Shown: positions 57,122 through 62,763, counted from the first letter of the stretch. The stretch is DNA of 64,000 nucleotides from Acidobacteriota bacterium (GCA_965217775.1 CBDCJH010000002.1:288001-352000); one strand, 5' to 3'. A program made the numbers and translations. The notes: generated by a model from the letters alone, not told the origin.

Positions 57122-57397
57122 ATGGAATTTGAGTGGGACGAGGCCAAGAATCAAGCGAACATCCGGAAGCATGGTGTCAGTTTCGAGACCGCCAGACGCA
57201 TCTTCGAGAGCTTCGTCCTGACGTGGCTCGACGATCGCCGGGACTACGGCGAGGACCGCTACATCAGCATCGGCCGGATAGGGCGGGCGGCACGGATCGT
57301 GGTCGCTCATACCAACAGAGACGGTCGCACTCGGTTGATCTCCGCCCGTCCGGCGTCCCGCAAGGAAAGGCAGGCTTACCATGAGCGAATACGATAG
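57122..57397 (+). CDS. brnT: BrnT family toxin
   Basis: FEWDEAKNQANIRKHGVSFE, DYGEDRY..IG, RLISARPASRKER. Confidence 0.93.
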   Translation: MEFEWDEAKNQANIRKHGVSFETARRIFESFVLTWLDDRRDYGEDRYISIGRIGRAARIVVAHTNRDGRTRLISARPASRKERQAYHERIR

Positions 57398-57641
57398 CCC
57401 CCTTACCCCCGCGCAGATCGCGGCCACAAAGGACGAGAATATCGACTTCAGCGAAATCCCCGAGTTGGACGAAACCTTCTGGCAGCATGCGAAACTCATT
57501 GAGCCTGATCTTACGGAGCAGATCACCTTACGCGTTAAACGTTCGGTGTTGACCTATTTCAGAGCTTCGGGCAAGGGCTACCAAACACGGATCAACCGTG
57601 TGCTGGAAAGTTACGTGCGGGCACAGAGAGAGCCCAGATAG
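57381..57641 (+). CDS. brnA: BrnA family antitoxin
   Basis: IDFSEIPELDETFW, QITLRV...VL.YFRASGKGYQTRINRVL; overlaps brnT. Confidence 0.92.
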   Translation: MSEYDSPLTPAQIAATKDENIDFSEIPELDETFWQHAKLIEPDLTEQITLRVKRSVLTYFRASGKGYQTRINRVLESYVRAQREPR

Positions 57642-58074
57642 CATGGTTTCAACGCGCTATTGCCGTCCGCACAGATAGCTGGCTGCGCCGCCGCGTGGGG
57701 CACCTACTTGGCTTCGCTGGCGCACTGTCCCCAGAAAGCATCCACGACGCAGGTGTTCGGCCAGTCGGTCTCTACGCGTCTGGGCCCCTTTTTTATGGAC
57801 GCCGCCGGTTGGAGTTGGAATGCTTCGCCGTCCCCGGTTACGCCTCCGCGAAGCAGAGCACTCTGGACCCGGAGGGCAGCTCCTGGCGCCGGTGGACTCG
57901 GAAGCACTTCCCCAGGCACTCCTCGAAGTAGTCCATCCGGTAGTCGGTGTACTGGTCTTCCTTGTTTCGCAGCAGCATCCGGACCATGGGGTTGTCCCGC
58001 CGCACGAATTCGATGACCAGAGAGTCGCCCCACCCCGAGAGCCATTCGACGAACTCGTCCAGTGGGTGTTGTCG
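57559..58074. repeat. Direct repeat copy B: brnA 3' end + spacer + ogt tail + methyltransferase 3' end
   Basis: 57559-57644 matches 61197-61282 at 84/86; 57822-58074 matches 61347-61600; 57810-57927 matches 1863-1980. Confidence 0.9.
57838..58070 (-). pseudogene. Orphan 3' fragment of the 61363-62763 methyltransferase
   Basis: Reads FVEWLSGWGDSLVIEFVRRDNPMVRMLLRNKEDQYTDYRMDYFEECLGKCFRVHRRQELPSGSRVLCFAEA*; no start. Confidence 0.85.
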
Positions 58075-58142: not shown

Positions 58143-58194
58143 AACCATATGATCGTCTAGATGACTTGAATTCGAAAACGAAAAACCATATGAT
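58143..58194 (+). promoter_or_regulatory. Sigma70-type promoter with repeated operator-like boxes for the toxin cassette
   Basis: TTGAAT-17 nt-TATGAT (58166-58194); AACCATATGAT occurs twice (58143, 58184), the second covering the -10 box. Confidence 0.6.
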
Positions 58195-58230
58195 AGAAGT
58201 TGGTCAGGATTCACCGGTACGCTGAAACCG

Positions 58231-58743
58231 ATGGCTCCTCTTGACAAAGGGATAAGGCGCGAACTGGCGGTCCTTGCGAGACGGAGACAAGCTCGCGTGA
58301 CTGAGTTCAGGCTCAATCGTCCCACTGACTGGCGGCCTGGACAGGTGCGCAACCCCGCTGGAGTTCTTGATACCCACTTTACGGACGCTGCGGCATGGGA
58401 ACTGATCGCATTCAAGCTTGACAGTCCGTGGTGAAAGTCGCGCGAGCACCGAGACCGTTCCTGCGCCCGCCGGACAAGGCGCGATGAGGGAGCATACCGG
58501 GAGTATGTGACCGAGTCGCAACGCAGTCCGCCGGGATGCAGGGACGGTCGAATGCCGTGACGACTTTTGCCACGGGCTGTTGAGGGCGGCCACCCGGTGG
58601 AGATCATCGAATTACACCATCCCCCGGGCCGCACTGGGTACGTCATGATGATTGATATTGAGCCCGGTCAACCCCAACTTTACGTGAAACTCCAACTGGG
58701 TTCCGGGAAGATAATCGGACGGAGCTTTCACTACTCCGAATAG
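58231..58743 (+). pseudogene. MqsR/RelE-superfamily-like toxin interrupted by a MITE
   Basis: Removing 58422-58583 restores a 116-aa ORF ending ...TGYVMMIDIEPGQPQLYVKLQLGSGKIIGRSFHYSE*, with the YxK...SFH tail typical of MqsR-like toxins. Confidence 0.72.
58422..58579. mobile_element. 158-bp MITE with IS1182-type ends
   Basis: Ends CAGTCCGTGGTGAAAGTC / GACTTTTGCCACGGGCTG (right end identical to the IS1182 copies), TTGA target duplication (58418-58421, 58580-58583), internal stems. Confidence 0.88.
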
Positions 58744-58764
58744 AAAGATTGAGGGAGTTGGAAA

Positions 58765-59325
58765 ATGAAATCTCGAAGCTCTACAACTCGGTTGCGGGAT
58801 ACACGGAAAGAGGTCGCCTGTCCGCAATGCGGGGATTTTGGGATAACTACCTCGCGGCATCGCCAGACATTCGCATACGGGTCCGGCGATTCTGTAGTCG
58901 AGTTGGCTGCAGACGTTCCGGTACGCTGCTGCGGCGCGTGCGAGTTCCAATACCTGGACGAAGAGTCCGAGCGCATCAGGCACGAGGCTGTCTGCAAACA
59001 CCTTGGTGTTTTGTCACCCGCCGAGATTCGACGCATCAGAGCAAGTCATCAAATGACACGCACGAAATTCGCTGGCATCACAGGGCTCGGCGAAGCTTCA
59101 TTGAATCGTTGGGAGAACGGGCTGACAGTTCAGACCCGCGCGAACGATCGCTACATCAGGCTTCTGGCGCGACCTGCGATCATGCAGCTTCTCAACAACC
59201 TCGTGGATGCCAGAGAGTCGCCGAGACCTGTGTTGAGGACTGGCGGGAATCGTTTCCGGACGCTGGAAGTTACCGACGCTATGTGTAAGAAGCAAGGGGA
59301 TTTCCAATTGCGACGGGTTGCGTGA
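58765..59325 (+). CDS. MqsA-like antitoxin (Zn ribbon + XRE HTH + C-terminal extension)
   Basis: CPQCG...VPVRCCGACEFQY, LSPAEIRRIR...MTRTKFAGITGLGEASLNRWENG..VQTRAND. Confidence 0.85.
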   Translation: MKSRSSTTRLRDTRKEVACPQCGDFGITTSRHRQTFAYGSGDSVVELAADVPVRCCGACEFQYLDEESERIRHEAVCKHLGVLSPAEIRRIRASHQMTRTKFAGITGLGEASLNRWENGLTVQTRANDRYIRLLARPAIMQLLNNLVDARESPRPVLRTGGNRFRTLEVTDAMCKKQGDFQLRRVA

Positions 59326-59329
59326 CGAT

Positions 59330-61153
59330 ATGTACGTTACGACTTTCTACTCATTCAAGGGCGGCGTCGGCCGAACGATGGCCCTGGTCAATGCGGCCGT
59401 CGAACTCACCAAGAGAGGCCGTCGCGTACTTGCGGTGGACTTTGATCTGGAGGCACCTGGGCTCGATACTTTCGACGTAATGCGACCTCGGAATTCTGTC
59501 CCTGGGGTCATCGACTTCGTAAGTGAGTACCTGGCTTCGGGACAAGCACCGGAGGCCAGTAGATTCATCAGCAAAGCCTCTGGAATCACTGACCACGATG
59601 GCAGACTATGGATAATGCCGTCAGGTAGAGACGAGACGTACGCCAAGAATTTCAATCAGATTGACTGGGGGGTGCTGTACGAAAGACATGACGGCTTTCT
59701 CCTATTCGAAGATCTCAAAGCACAATGGAATCGAGTAGTGAATCCGGATTATGTTTTGATTGATTCACGGACGGGACATACCGATACTGGTGGTATCTGT
59801 ACCCGCCAGCTTCCAGATGCCGTAGCGATTCTGTTTTTTCCGAACGAACAAAACCTGCGCGGTTTGACCAAGGTCGTTCGGGATATTCGATCCGAGGCCC
59901 TCGAACCACGCAAAAAACCCATCCAGCTCCATTTCGTGATGTCCAACGTGCCGGACCTGGACGACGAAGACAGGATTCTCAGCGAACAGATCAAAGCTTT
60001 TCAGACGCAACTTGGCTTCAGGACAGATCCGATGGTCGTGCACAGATACGATAGTCTTTCGCTACTGAACCAAGTCGTGTTTGCAAAGGATCGACCGAGA
60101 AGCCGACTTGCAAGGGAATATAGACGGATAGTTCGTGAGATATCGGGGCGCAACTGGGCTGATCGGGACGGCGCCCTGGATTATATCAGTCGTGCAGCGA
60201 AACGCTGGCGGGGGAACGCGGATGAATCGATACAGGCACGAGAAGGCATGCTCGAAAAGATTGAAGATGCTCACTCGAGGGACGGGGAGGTATTGTTCCG
60301 TCTTGGTGAACTAAGGGATAGTGTTCGACAACCGGAATGGGCCGTGTCCTTGTACAATCGAGCGATTGATGCGGGATACGATAGACCTGAGGCCTACTTG
60401 AAACGGGCTCGTATTCGCGCAGAGAATGGCGATCGTGCAGGTGCGTCTGAGGACGCATTGCACGTATTGGAGTTCGATGAAGTGTCACCGCCAATGGTGC
60501 GGGATGCAATCCTGCGGACAGTCTCCCTTACTCCCGCAGAAATTGCCGCCTCAAACGCTGTTACGTCGCTGGATTTGGATGACAAAATTTGGCTTGCAAG
60601 TACATTCGACCGTTCTCCGGCCGAGATACGGATCGCTTTGCCTATTTGGAAACGTATCAATAGCGATAATCTGCCGGCAGAAAAGCTTCAGATGGTAAGA
60701 CACCACTTGGGATTGTCGTATATTGGAATTGGAAGGTGTTCTGATGCTGTAACGGTGCTCCGCCAGGGTGCGCGAAGTTACGGCGATATGGCTATTGCCG
60801 ATGCGTTCGATTGTGCCATGGCGATGTGGGGCGAGTCTGGAACTCCTGACGCTGAGGCGTTCCTACGGGTTGTCGAACTCAATCAGTCGAACTCACAGAA
60901 GCACGAAGGACCGAATTACCTTCAATGCATGGCGATTGCATACTGGGCATCGGGCAATACAGAGATGGCGATCGAGTACGTGGACCGGGCACAACAGGCA
61001 ATACGAACGACCCGTAGAGCGACGGTGTTCAGTTGTTGGTGTTACTGCCGCGTAAATGCAGGCACTTTCGTGGCTGATCTGGATGCAATTCGCACATTGA
61101 TCGATGGCGAGACGTCACTGATGCCCCGATTCATGGCTGCATCCGAGAAGTGA
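59330..61153 (+). CDS. KGGVGR-motif ParA/MinD-type ATPase with C-terminal TPR-like region
   Basis: TFYSFKGGVGRTMALVN, VDFDLEAPGL, DYVLIDSRTG, PNEQNL.G; helical TPR-like C-terminal half. Confidence 0.85.
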   Translation: MYVTTFYSFKGGVGRTMALVNAAVELTKRGRRVLAVDFDLEAPGLDTFDVMRPRNSVPGVIDFVSEYLASGQAPEASRFISKASGITDHDGRLWIMPSGRDETYAKNFNQIDWGVLYERHDGFLLFEDLKAQWNRVVNPDYVLIDSRTGHTDTGGICTRQLPDAVAILFFPNEQNLRGLTKVVRDIRSEALEPRKKPIQLHFVMSNVPDLDDEDRILSEQIKAFQTQLGFRTDPMVVHRYDSLSLLNQVVFAKDRPRSRLAREYRRIVREISGRNWADRDGALDYISRAAKRWRGNADESIQAREGMLEKIEDAHSRDGEVLFRLGELRDSVRQPEWAVSLYNRAIDAGYDRPEAYLKRARIRAENGDRAGASEDALHVLEFDEVSPPMVRDAILRTVSLTPAEIAASNAVTSLDLDDKIWLASTFDRSPAEIRIALPIWKRINSDNLPAEKLQMVRHHLGLSYIGIGRCSDAVTVLRQGARSYGDMAIADAFDCAMAMWGESGTPDAEAFLRVVELNQSNSQKHEGPNYLQCMAIAYWASGNTEMAIEYVDRAQQAIRTTRRATVFSCWCYCRVNAGTFVADLDAIRTLIDGETSLMPRFMAASEK

Positions 61154-61196
61154 GCACCGAAACGCGACGTGAAGGATGAGCGGAACGAACAAGAAA

Positions 61197-61600
61197 TCAG
61201 AGCATCGGGCAAGGGCTACCAGACACGGATCAACCGTGTGCTGGAAAGTTACGTGCGGGCACAGAGAGAGCCCAGATAGCATTGTTCGACGCGCTGTGGC
61301 CGGTCCGAGTAGGTCGGGCCACGACGCCGCGTGAGGCGTCTCCGTGGCTTCGCCGTCCCAGGTCACGCTTCCGCAAAGTAGAGGACTCTGGACCCGGAGG
61401 GCAGCTCCTGGCGCCGGTGGACCCGGAAGCACTTCCCCAGGCAATCCTCGAAGTAGTCCATCCGGTAGTCGGTGTACTGGTCTTCCTTGTTCCGCAGCAG
61501 CATCTTGACCATGGGGTCGTCCCGCCGCACGAATTCGATGACCAGAGAGCCGCCCAGCCCCGAGAGCCATTCCACGAACTCGGCCAGGGGGATGTTGGCG
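61197..61600. repeat. Direct repeat copy C: brnA 3' fragment + spacer + intact methyltransferase 3' end
   Basis: Matches copy B except for a 111-bp segment between two GCTTCGC microhomologies (57711, 57822). Confidence 0.9.
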
Positions 61601-62763
61601 TCGATGACCATGTGGTGAATCAGCGCCAGGCAGAGGATCAATTCAGGGGATCCTCGCCGGGTCAGGGAGGTCCGCTCGCGGCAGCGCCACCCCAGTGACG
61701 GCGAGGGGTCGGCCAAGTTGACCACCAGCGGCAGTATGTTCTCGGGGCCCTCACGCTCCAGGGTGCGGTAGAGGAGGTCCACGGCGGCCGAGTCTTGCTC
61801 CATGGCCAGGACGTACTCGGAGCCGGCAGCGGCCAGACGCGAGTAGTCACCCGTGTTGGCCCCCAGGTCCCAGGCCGTCTTCCATCGCTTACGACCCACT
61901 GCCCAGCGAACGAATTCCCGTTTGGCGTCCCGGTCGGGCCCGGAATAGGTGTTGTCTCCGGCGTATCCGGTCCAATGGGAGGCGGAAGGCGTCCATCTCA
62001 GTCGTGAAACCAGCCGGGTCAGGCGGCTGACATTGGAGAGAATCGCCTTCCGGTTGAAGCCGGCGTCCTTGAGCAACTGGCTCGTACTCTCTTTACGGGC
62101 ACCGTATTTTTCCTGGAAACGGCTCTGGAGCCAGACATGGAGGAGGACTCCGGAGCGGAACAGATCCCGGCCCGAAAGCAGGTCGCGGCATTCCCGGGGA
62201 GAGATTCCTTCCAGACTTCCTCTCAGCCACGGTTGGAACGGGAGATTTCGATAGGCCTGCAACATCAGCGGGTACAAGAAGAGACTGCAGAACTGCCGGT
62301 AACCGGTCCAGGCGCCCCCCGGGGGCAAGGGCTCAAAGGAAGGAATGTCGATGAAGACGGGCCGGATCCCGTTCCATTGAACGTTGTACGGGGTGGCGTC
62401 CTTGAGGATCATCCCTTCGGCCAGGGACTCGGAAACAAGGCGCAGTTGCAGCAGGGCCGCGTCCTGCAGCATTTGGAACGACCACTCGTAGGGATAGGAG
62501 ACGTAGGGGATGGTCTCGTGGCGCAAAATGCCCGCCCAGTCTCCGGGCAGCGCTTTCGAGGACGCCAACCCGGCGGCGTCCGCCAGACCGGTCTTGACGA
62601 TCAGACCCTCCTCCACCAGTCGGGGAAAGAATCGGGTCTTCTCCAGTGTGTGCCAAGCCGTAAGGGAATGACGGCTGAGGGCGCGGTAGACGGCGCCGTC
62701 CTTGTAGAAGACGCGGCCGTGGCGATCGCGGAACGATCCGGGCTCGCTTCGAATTTCAGACAT
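61363..62763 (-). CDS. Class I SAM-dependent methyltransferase, NoeA-like
   Basis: GSFRDRHGRV, SYPYEWSF..L.DAA, LKDATPYNVQW, PVFIDIPSF, SAM motif WDLGANTG, LALIHH. Confidence 0.82.
   Translation of the reverse strand: MSEIRSEPGSFRDRHGRVFYKDGAVYRALSRHSLTAWHTLEKTRFFPRLVEEGLIVKTGLADAAGLASSKALPGDWAGILRHETIPYVSYPYEWSFQMLQDAALLQLRLVSESLAEGMILKDATPYNVQWNGIRPVFIDIPSFEPLPPGGAWTGYRQFCSLFLYPLMLQAYRNLPFQPWLRGSLEGISPRECRDLLSGRDLFRSGVLLHVWLQSRFQEKYGARKESTSQLLKDAGFNRKAILSNVSRLTRLVSRLRWTPSASHWTGYAGDNTYSGPDRDAKREFVRWAVGRKRWKTAWDLGANTGDYSRLAAAGSEYVLAMEQDSAAVDLLYRTLEREGPENILPLVVNLADPSPSLGWRCRERTSLTRRGSPELILCLALIHHMVIDANIPLAEFVEWLSGLGGSLVIEFVRRDDPMVKMLLRNKEDQYTDYRMDYFEDCLGKCFRVHRRQELPSGSRVLYFAEA

Follow-up and report, generated by a model that had tools for sequence, protein, structure and literature searches.

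We describe a compact operon of three genes, read from the sequence and its open reading frames (ORFs) on the plus strand, at positions 58143-61153 of a 64-kb stretch of Acidobacteriota DNA (GCA_965217775.1 CBDCJH010000002.1:288001-352000; hereafter the window, 64,000 nt long, from whose first letter all positions are counted). The genes encode, in order, a putative toxin, an MqsA-family antitoxin with a conserved C-terminal tail, and an ATPase with a KGGVGR P-loop that continues into tetratricopeptide repeat (TPR)-like helices. We propose, with a probability of roughly 0.55, that this cassette is a tripartite toxin-antitoxin (TA) operon resembling the toxin-antitoxin-chaperone (TAC) systems, in which the arginine-P-loop ATPase replaces the chaperone SecB. 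The proposal is built on the observed gene content and order, the conservation of the operator, a match of the toxin to MqsR at the level of fold, and the co-occurrence of the antitoxin tail with the ATPase. The cassette has the look of a regulated self-poisoning or anti-virus module of an undescribed kind; among the titles and passages returned by full-text literature searches, none describes it.

Searches from different genes of the cassette led to the same arrangement. Starting from the ATPase, 27 loci were found, of which 24 carried first the toxin, then the antitoxin, then the ATPase; the remaining three hold ATPase fragments, at a contig end or decayed. The toxin was one continuous frame in 21 of the 24, and ATPase identity in this set was 52-89%. 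A search with the antitoxin found 120 relatives, the best 80 of which comprised 64 three-gene loci and 10 with toxin, antitoxin and the N-terminal ATPase domain only; among the six without an ATPase, four kept toxin and antitoxin, one had the antitoxin alone, and one lay beside an unrelated canonical ParA. A wider alignment search with the ATPase, in a collection of one genome per species (185,579 species), returned at least 551 relatives, and a toxin-family gene and an MqsA-type gene were both upstream in 79 of the 80 examined. An earlier note on this DNA had asked whether the genes co-occur in the same order across genomes, and they do so by three entry points (24/27, 74/80 and 79/80 loci), a result supporting the view that they form one conserved unit in fixed order, whichever gene is used for the search. 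All three genes reach full hidden Markov model (HMM) coverage in 96 of 143 non-redundant loci, the partial matches including contig ends and divergent forms, and the distance from antitoxin stop to ATPase start is between -1 and 7 nt in 53 of 56 loci.

The same linkage is visible within a phylum. Among 401 genomes of the window's phylum, the KGGVGR domain scored above its cut-off in 21. Eight orthologues (at least 61% identical in the N-terminal domain) all have the TA pair upstream, whereas 12 paralogues (29-38% identity) have none. The toxin family was present in nine of the 401 genomes, exactly those with an orthologous ATPase, the window's own included. In a further 401-genome sample, drawn around a proteobacterial carrier, it was present in three, counting the carrier.

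By record title, carriers belong to Acidobacteriota, Candidatus Binatia, Alpha-, Beta- and Gammaproteobacteria, Spirochaetia, Latescibacterota, Planctomycetota, Bacteroidetes and Myxococcota, and many titles point to sponge-associated metagenome-assembled genomes (MAGs). Since ATPase identity does not visibly follow the taxon named in a record's title, the sequences suggest horizontal spread of the cassette. Cultured strains among the carriers of the wider set are Martelella radicis, Pyxidicoccus fallax (DSM 14698), Colwellia marinimaniae (MTCD1), Bradyrhizobium sp. (STM 3557), Paraburkholderia sp. and Paludibacillus litoralis, and the three-gene cassette also lies on plasmids of Rhizobium phaseoli (strain N831) and Massilia forsythiae (strain GN2-R2), where the toxin is unannotated in the plasmid tables. 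RefSeq-derived tables label the genes only as 'MqsA family antitoxin' and 'ParA family protein'. Common as it is (at least 551 relatives), and present in cultured strains and on plasmids, the cassette is directly testable with standard assays.

The antitoxin (58765..59325, plus strand; 186 aa) is a predicted autorepressor. It passes the Pfam cut-off for PF15731 MqsA_antitoxin (35.3 bits against 30, residues 18-136) and falls just below that of NCBIfam TIGR03830 (61.5 bits against 61.8). Its zinc-ribbon cysteines (C19, C22, C56 and C59, in the arrangement CxxC ... CxxC) were invariant in sets of 23 and 55 sequences, and a helix-turn-helix (HTH) domain follows at about residues 84-136. The earlier note had described an MqsA-like antitoxin with about 45 extra residues; the protein indeed passes the MqsA threshold and has about 50 C-terminal residues beyond that domain, with a conserved motif among them. 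They divide into a variable linker (residues 137-161, 59173-59247) and a conserved 25-residue tail (residues 162-186, 59248-59322), whose mean pairwise identities are 21% and 43%, respectively. The tail reads RFRxLxVTDxxRKxQxxFxLRx[AV]A-COOH. Across 55 sequences, position 164 is always F or W, L182 is present in all and F180 in 54, followed by Q177 (49/55), R165 (47/55) and R183 (46/55), and the last two residues (positions 185-186) are mostly [AV]-A.

This tail accompanies the ATPase. It is absent from all seven MqsA-type loci that have no ATPase (L084, L087, L092, L094, L110, L114 and L161), whose antitoxins stop within or just after the linker. At L087 and L161 both toxin and antitoxin frames are intact, so a tail-less two-gene form seems viable, and the antitoxin of L161 is similar in sequence to that of the three-gene locus L162. 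The intact frames of such two-gene forms could also be taken to mean that the ATPase-TPR protein has a conflict or regulatory role of its own and no more than shares the operon. The tail, unrelated to it, would then serve as a degron for a protease or in DNA looping. Proteases commonly degrade antitoxins, and the Ala-Ala at positions 185-186, [AV]-A in most of the 55 sequences, presumably resembles ssrA-type ClpX signals. We nevertheless regard this explanation as unlikely: in each of two unrelated partner families, loci that lost the ATPase have lost the tail as well; the gene junction is tight; the toxin family and the ATPase orthologue occur in an identical set of 9 of 401 genomes; and a degron role of the tail would be compatible with shielding by the ATPase.

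The second partner family is a pair of genes 5' of the ATPase that encode a 76-aa protein and a 221-aa HTH protein. The pair precedes an ATPase-TPR gene on a Polymorphobacter megasporae plasmid (L165:2091-3001) and in a Sphingomonas MAG (L247), and neither protein has a match in Pfam or NCBIfam. At these two loci the C-terminus of the 221-aa protein reads KFYTRRKI...GFDLRR and repeats the two-part motif of the tail; its relatives at L248 and L249 have no ATPase next to them and no such ending. With two loci that have both and two that have neither, comparison of the sequences supports an extension of the tail-with-ATPase rule to this unrelated family.

Which half of the ATPase partners the tail can be judged from eight loci whose ATPases, of 281-284 aa, end at the domain boundary and have no TPR half. 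They represent at least three lineages (the L050/L056/L059/L060/L064 group; L053; L116/L119). All eight keep the tail motif and a junction of -1 to 5 nt, and in several the toxin and tailed-antitoxin frames are intact. Because these variants retain the tail and the tight junction, the tail's partner is probably the ATPase domain and not the TPR half, and the comparison argues for a TPR half that acts as an input module, one that varies and can be dispensed with. The earlier note had inferred that the TPR region binds the antitoxin tail, and the eight loci speak against it. In its favour, TPR domains bind C-terminal peptides, the EEVD peptides of Hsp70 and Hsp90 being held by TPR clamps; the C-terminal half is TPR-like, and the conserved L-R-x-[AV]-A at the extreme C-terminus of the antitoxin is what such a clamp might grip while the ATPase domain only powers or gates the contact. 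Yet the tail persists where the TPR half is missing, and that half is the least conserved part while the key residues of the tail are near-invariant, which leaves a TPR clamp with a low probability in our view.

The third gene begins at an ATG at 59330, 4 nt after the antitoxin stop, and encodes 607 aa, ending at 61153. Its N-terminal domain (residues 1-285; 59330..60184, plus strand) is a ParA/MinD-like P-loop domain that scores 168.7 bits against NF047398, 'KGGVGR-motif variant AAA ATPase' (cut-off 90), and contains the Walker A motif K10-G-G-V-G-R15-T16 (59357-59377, plus strand). In 55 sequences K10-G-G-V-G-R15, D37, D39 and D145-S-R-T-G149 are invariant: the signature lysine and acidic residues typical of ParA/MinD are kept, and the P-loop lysine is always arginine. 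The C-terminal half (residues 286-607 and the stop; 60185..61153, plus strand) reaches 26.2 bits with Pfam TPR_14 (cut-off 23.5), with other TPR models just below their cut-offs, and a profile of 55 sequences matches engineered TPR (1.1e-5) and LapB TPR (9.8e-5) chains. The earlier description of a 607-aa KGGVGR ATPase with TPR-like repeats 4 nt downstream of the antitoxin is borne out by these scores. Mean pairwise identity is 71% in the N-terminal domain, the most conserved part of the cassette, and 40% in the TPR-like half, the lowest, so that by this measure the latter is its fastest-evolving part. Pfam and NCBIfam scans of the third gene gave no SecB match. In an uncultured Pseudohongiella (L012:4001-6847 and L075) the ATPase frame extends to 949 aa, which may reflect fusion to a downstream domain or a lost stop codon.

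Relatives of this domain keep company with immune genes. At the 12 paralogous loci of the same phylum, KGGVGR domains are fused to nSTAND1 with TPR, to TIR with NB-ARC/NACHT, to pentapeptide repeats with TIR, and to HEAT repeats; the loci adjoin TIR genes and a SLATT gene, and TIR is present in four of the 12. The Atlas neighbours of the ATPase homologue P0011 likewise are KGGVGR, TPR and TIR-bearing clusters. In Kaur et al. 2020 (PMC7159879), MinD/ParA-like domains, predicted to be inactive, are described as parts of NTP-dependent conflict systems, and the KGGVGR domain is presumably the same domain. The proteins of NF047398 (FxsT-type and other conflict proteins) and the cassette ATPase are alike in the arginine P-loop, in fusion to repeat domains and in conflict-type contexts; they differ in their partners, which are TIR, STAND, vWA-MoxR and peptide-modification genes for the former and a TA pair here. 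The model PDC-M28B, of a PADLOC candidate system, covers ATPase residues 4-224 (E 4.6e-30, positions 131-356 of the 438-position model), and PDC-M28A matched neither the toxin fragments nor the antitoxin; the likeness to PDC-M28 is thus confined to component B and, within it, to the ATPase domain. A full-text literature search for the name PDC-M28 found no paper. The case for an immune or conflict role is one of association, and a defence role of the cassette is plausible. A paralogous KGGVGR ATPase (34% identical) was also seen after an HTH_37 (antidote-like) gene and two small ORFs of unknown family (L139:95-1491), which may be a further small module coupled to this ATPase type.

Upstream of the toxin lies a promoter and operator region (58143..58198, plus strand), defined by its sequence, by box statistics and by a promoter scan. 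Boxes AACCATATGATCG and AACCATATGATAG have their cores at 58146-58152 (distal) and 58187-58193 (proximal), and these two copies of AACCATATGAT bracket a sigma-70-like promoter (-35 TTGAAT at 58166-58171, a 17-nt spacer, -10 TATGAT at 58189-58194; promoter scan 9/12), with the proximal copy overlapping the -10 element. The earlier note's claim of an own promoter with repeated boxes is confirmed, and the boxes recur at other loci. At 65 of 69, CA[AT]ATGA is present at least once within the 131 nt 5' of the toxin, where shuffling predicts 1.7 such loci, and at 44 of 69 it is present at least twice, where shuffling predicts 0.01. Distances between boxes cluster at 40-42, 51-53, 62 and 71-74 nt, near whole helical turns, and a promoter of the form TTGAnn-N16-18-YATDAT is present in 42 of the 69 upstream regions. 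The conserved boxes fit autoregulation by the HTH antitoxin, whose binding we infer.

Repeated upstream boxes near helical-turn spacing, together with a ParA/MinD-like domain and the presence of some copies on plasmids, also recall plasmid partition. In type Ib partition (ParF/ParG, and delta/omega of pSM19035), a ParA-like protein is paired with a small autoregulatory DNA-binding protein whose flexible, arginine-containing tail stimulates ParA, the sites being repeated upstream, and the DNA-binding protein of pSM19035 also regulates a TA pair. By analogy, the cassette could be a stability module in which the ATPase segregates DNA, the antitoxin acts through its arginine-rich tail as a centromere-binding adaptor, the boxes are the centromere and the toxin kills after segregation failure. 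Much argues otherwise. Most copies lie on chromosomes of 3-8 Mb, and on the 23-kb Massilia plasmid, the one small plasmid examined, an ordinary ParA of 234 aa and a partitioning determinant are encoded apart from the cassette. The ATPase, with its P-loop lysine replaced, scores 24.7 bits against a cut-off of 180 for NCBIfam NF041546 ParA_partition and does not belong to that family; the domain's paralogues are accompanied by immune domains (TIR, STAND and SLATT), not by partition genes; and the gene order is toxin-antitoxin-ATPase rather than parA-parB, the TPR fusion being a further difference from type Ib. We therefore think a partition function improbable.

For the TAC-like operon that we favour, the following sequence of events can be put forward. 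Gene 1 would encode an mRNA-cleaving toxin, its conserved Tyr-x-Lys and Ser-Phe-His matching the catalytic strands of MqsR, and the zinc ribbon of the antitoxin would neutralise it. The antitoxin HTH would bind the two TCATATGA-type boxes straddling the promoter and repress the operon, and gene 3, starting 4 nt downstream of the antitoxin, would be translationally coupled to it. The ATPase domain would dock the antitoxin tail and so control the stability or availability of the antitoxin, a nucleotide-dependent dimer switch taking the place that SecB has in TAC logic. The TPR-like half would sense the input, possibly a phage protein, and once the tail is let go, the antitoxin would disappear and leave the toxin free. 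Toxicity, contact between tail and ATPase, direction of control, trigger and biological role are predictions of this scheme.

The comparison with TAC is instructive in both directions. Those systems are a case in which the toxin becomes active when a phage protein dislodges the third partner from the antitoxin (review, PMC11980606). According to Bordes et al. 2016 (PMC5105189), HigA, MqsA and HicB antitoxins each depend on SecB-type chaperones by way of C-terminal chaperone addiction (ChAD) extensions, and deletion of the ChAD makes the antitoxin chaperone-independent and fully active without the chaperone. Full neutralisation by an antitoxin without ATPase and tail would therefore not discriminate, because a tail-deleted TAC antitoxin is likewise fully active. 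The MqsRA-SecB type and the cassette share an arrangement of three genes, a TA pair and then an accessory gene; an extension of roughly 40-50 residues after the HTH (residues 136-176 form the ChAD of Vibrio cholerae MqsA, and residues 137-186 the extension here); two-gene relatives without the extension; and the use of one accessory protein for more than one antitoxin scaffold. They part in the third gene, which encodes a SecB-like chaperone in TAC and a KGGVGR P-loop protein with TPR-like repeats here, and in the tail, which has a conserved motif in the cassette (RFR...FxLRxAA), whereas PMC5105189 reports no significant mutual similarity among ChADs. The likeness to TAC is one of genes, and chaperone activity, binding and addiction are predicted for the cassette. 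The earlier idea of the ATPase-TPR protein as a SecB substitute holds in its outline, a conserved tripartite module with a tailed antitoxin, and is probably wrong where it let the tail go with the TPR half. Relative to E. coli MqsR/MqsA, the cassette has in common the CxxC...CxxC ribbon with HTH, the toxin-first order and palindromic operators over the promoter, and it differs in its TCATATGA-like operator, its extra tail and its third gene.

A number of results weigh against this reading, and those on the toxin come first. The intact-toxin analyses rest on natural homologues, with residue numbers following the toxin-family alignment. None of 20 intact homologues matched PF15723 (MqsR) at E up to 10, and Pfam as a whole gave no match for them or for the window's fragments; PDB sequence profiles returned nothing significant. 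The AlphaFold2 model of a homologue, a helix-helix-four-strand fold, is of middling confidence (mean predicted local distance difference test score 66.9, predicted template-modelling score 0.64), Foldseek found no match for it in the PDB at E <= 0.001, and hhalign paired the toxin weakly with E. coli MqsR (probability 0.4%) and with a 26-sequence MqsR alignment (6.7%). On the other side, VIA-align against 48,161 chains placed E. coli MqsR first (3hi2_D, Z 8.1, root-mean-square deviation 2.9, 87 of 91 residues aligned), the next-best match having Z 4.9. In a weak profile alignment of 20 columns, the family's YIKLQ...GRSFH lies on YLKLT...VSFK of MqsR, so that the invariant Y98 and conserved K100, S112, F113 and H114 fall on MqsR Y81, K83, S94, F95 and K96. 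Further differences from MqsR are a conserved RPTDWRPxQVRNP insert and the histidine in place of Lys96. Since there is no sequence-family match and yet MqsR is the best structural match, we call the toxin a new sequence family with a predicted MqsR-like fold. A search of 1.84 billion proteins with its profile yields 475 cluster representatives at E <= 0.001.

Given the lack of a sequence-family match, and with toxicity only predicted, one could hold that the operon is no TA system at all, gene 1 being a harmless accessory of a signalling unit made of a transcription factor and an ATPase. We deem this highly improbable, as the predicted fold is closest to MqsR, the partner is of the MqsA family, and residues that align with the MqsR catalytic strands are conserved. 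Moreover, gene 1 is partial or missing in 17 of 136 non-redundant ATPase-bearing loci, as it is broken here, which is the usual pattern for toxin genes.

The remaining objections to a TAC-like operon concern the tail, the ATPase and the setting. The tail-coding DNA abuts the ATPase gene, so that ATPase deletions could clip the tail by geometry alone, and the seven tail losses amount to about six independent events. The TPR half, the proposed sensor, is dispensable for keeping tail and ATPase domain together. An arginine in place of the P-loop lysine is predicted to be inactive (Kaur et al., PMC7159879), which makes a switch driven by ATP hydrolysis uncertain. Among 50,697 phage records, no homologue of the ATPase was found. 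The cassette's neighbourhoods (130 ORFs at 23 loci) hold mostly metabolic, transport and housekeeping genes, and with neighbouring ORFs of mostly metabolic or transport kinds we dropped an argument from defence islands. About 9 to 11 of the 23 contain transposases, an integrase fragment, a DNA methylase, Wadjet JetC/JetD, a KAP NTPase or similar. Finally, the window's own module cannot act as a TA pair, which counts against it as evidence of present function. Next to the cassette on the Rhizobium phaseoli plasmid pRphaN831c (L163:5908-9851), the opposite strand encodes an SbcC-like AAA ATPase, a metallophosphoesterase labelled 'DNA repair exonuclease' and a very large DUF3320 protein, which may be another defence-type cluster.

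There is also a broader, more tentative idea: KGGVGR ATPases might be a general, portable third component that turns two-gene TA modules into sensor-controlled immune switches by means of an ATPase-held docking or degron tail (KF[RY]...FxLR...COOH). An invader would be sensed by the rapidly evolving TPR half, the toxin would be unleashed when the tail comes free, and the whole would be the counterpart of SecB-based TAC with a nucleotide switch. This is possible, and we would not yet lean on it. If true, it would give a first function to a domain family otherwise fused to TIR, STAND and SLATT immune modules. It would also add a second, unrelated class of third partner, making 'tail plus guardian' a general way of wiring toxins to sensors.

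The loss of TA function in the window is due to a recent insertion of a miniature inverted-repeat transposable element (MITE) that broke the toxin gene, and not to point mutations; the antitoxin and ATPase genes remain open frames. The toxin frame runs from ATG 58231 to TAG 58743 and is interrupted by two in-frame TGA codons, both carried by the 158-bp MITE (58422..58579, plus strand), which was recognised from its genome copies, its terminal inverted repeats and its target duplication. The 5' part (58231..58417, plus strand), defined by frame translation and alignment to L001, comprises codons 1-62 and the first base of codon 63 and matches the toxin-family HMM over positions 5-63; the 3' part (58580..58743, plus strand) contains the conserved Y-x-K and GRSFH motifs and ends in TAG at 58741-58743. 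Compared with L001, the closest intact homologue (an Acidobacteriota MAG syntenic with the window), the insertion is of 162 nt (58418-58579), that is, the MITE plus a 4-bp TTGA target duplication (58418-58421 and 58580-58583). The earlier note had proposed a reconstructable 116-aa MqsR-like toxin. Without the insertion the toxin is indeed 116 aa, and its likeness to MqsR holds for the predicted fold and not for the sequence family.

The element itself ends in imperfect 19-bp inverted repeats (CAGYCCGTGG..AAAGTCG). Of 306 first-look candidates in the window's own genome, 40 were scored and gave 40 further full-length matches of 96-100% identity, and eight of nine further copies inspected have the terminal inverted repeats and perfect 4-bp target duplications. 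Judged by that degree of identity, the MITE family has been active recently. An uninterrupted toxin allele exists in a near-identical population, since in public run X6 a contig of 964 nt passes directly from 58417 to 58580, skipping exactly the 162 nt, at about 98% identity on both sides (side 255 letters); joints across the site in runs X1 and X5 have sides of only 26 and 28 letters and were not counted, leaving X6 alone. In metagenome runs, summed word depth was 43,000-73,000 over the MITE and 10-40 on its flanks, MITE contigs being very abundant. Metatranscriptome run X12 contained small contigs at 58235-58421 and 60881-61069 along with MITE pieces, for which DNA carry-over is a possible source.

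The flanks of the cassette are also duplicated, in keeping with the repeat-bounded module that the earlier note had recognised: direct repeats of 97% and 93% identity lie at both sides. Direct repeat D2 (90 nt, 97% identical between copies, from a repeat search) consists of the 3' end of brnA (copy a, 57559..57648, plus strand) and a truncated duplicate of that end 3' of the cassette (copy b, 61197..61286, plus strand), where a 36-aa ORF (61169-61279) repeats the BrnA C-terminus. Direct repeat D1 (245 nt, 93% identical) has its full copy at 61347-61591, within the 3' end of a convergent gene of 466 aa (61363-62763), and a truncated duplicate of that gene's 3' end at 57822..58066 (copy a, minus strand), where a 55-aa ORF (57838-58005) matches the C-terminus of the 466-aa protein. 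A BrnT/BrnA TA pair lies just 5' of the cassette (57122-57641; Pfam E 2.1e-25 and 1.1e-12), the BrnA match being at 57381-57641. Altogether about 0.5 kb is present in two copies, one on either side of the cassette (57559-58066 and 61197-61591); it spans the 3' ends of brnA and of the 466-aa gene with the intergenic region between them. The arrangement looks like the outcome of a recombination in which the cassette came in on a circle that carried the brnA/466-aa gene junction. In the same-genus relative L001, the cassette occupies the same site without the duplication and with an extra 155-aa ORF upstream.

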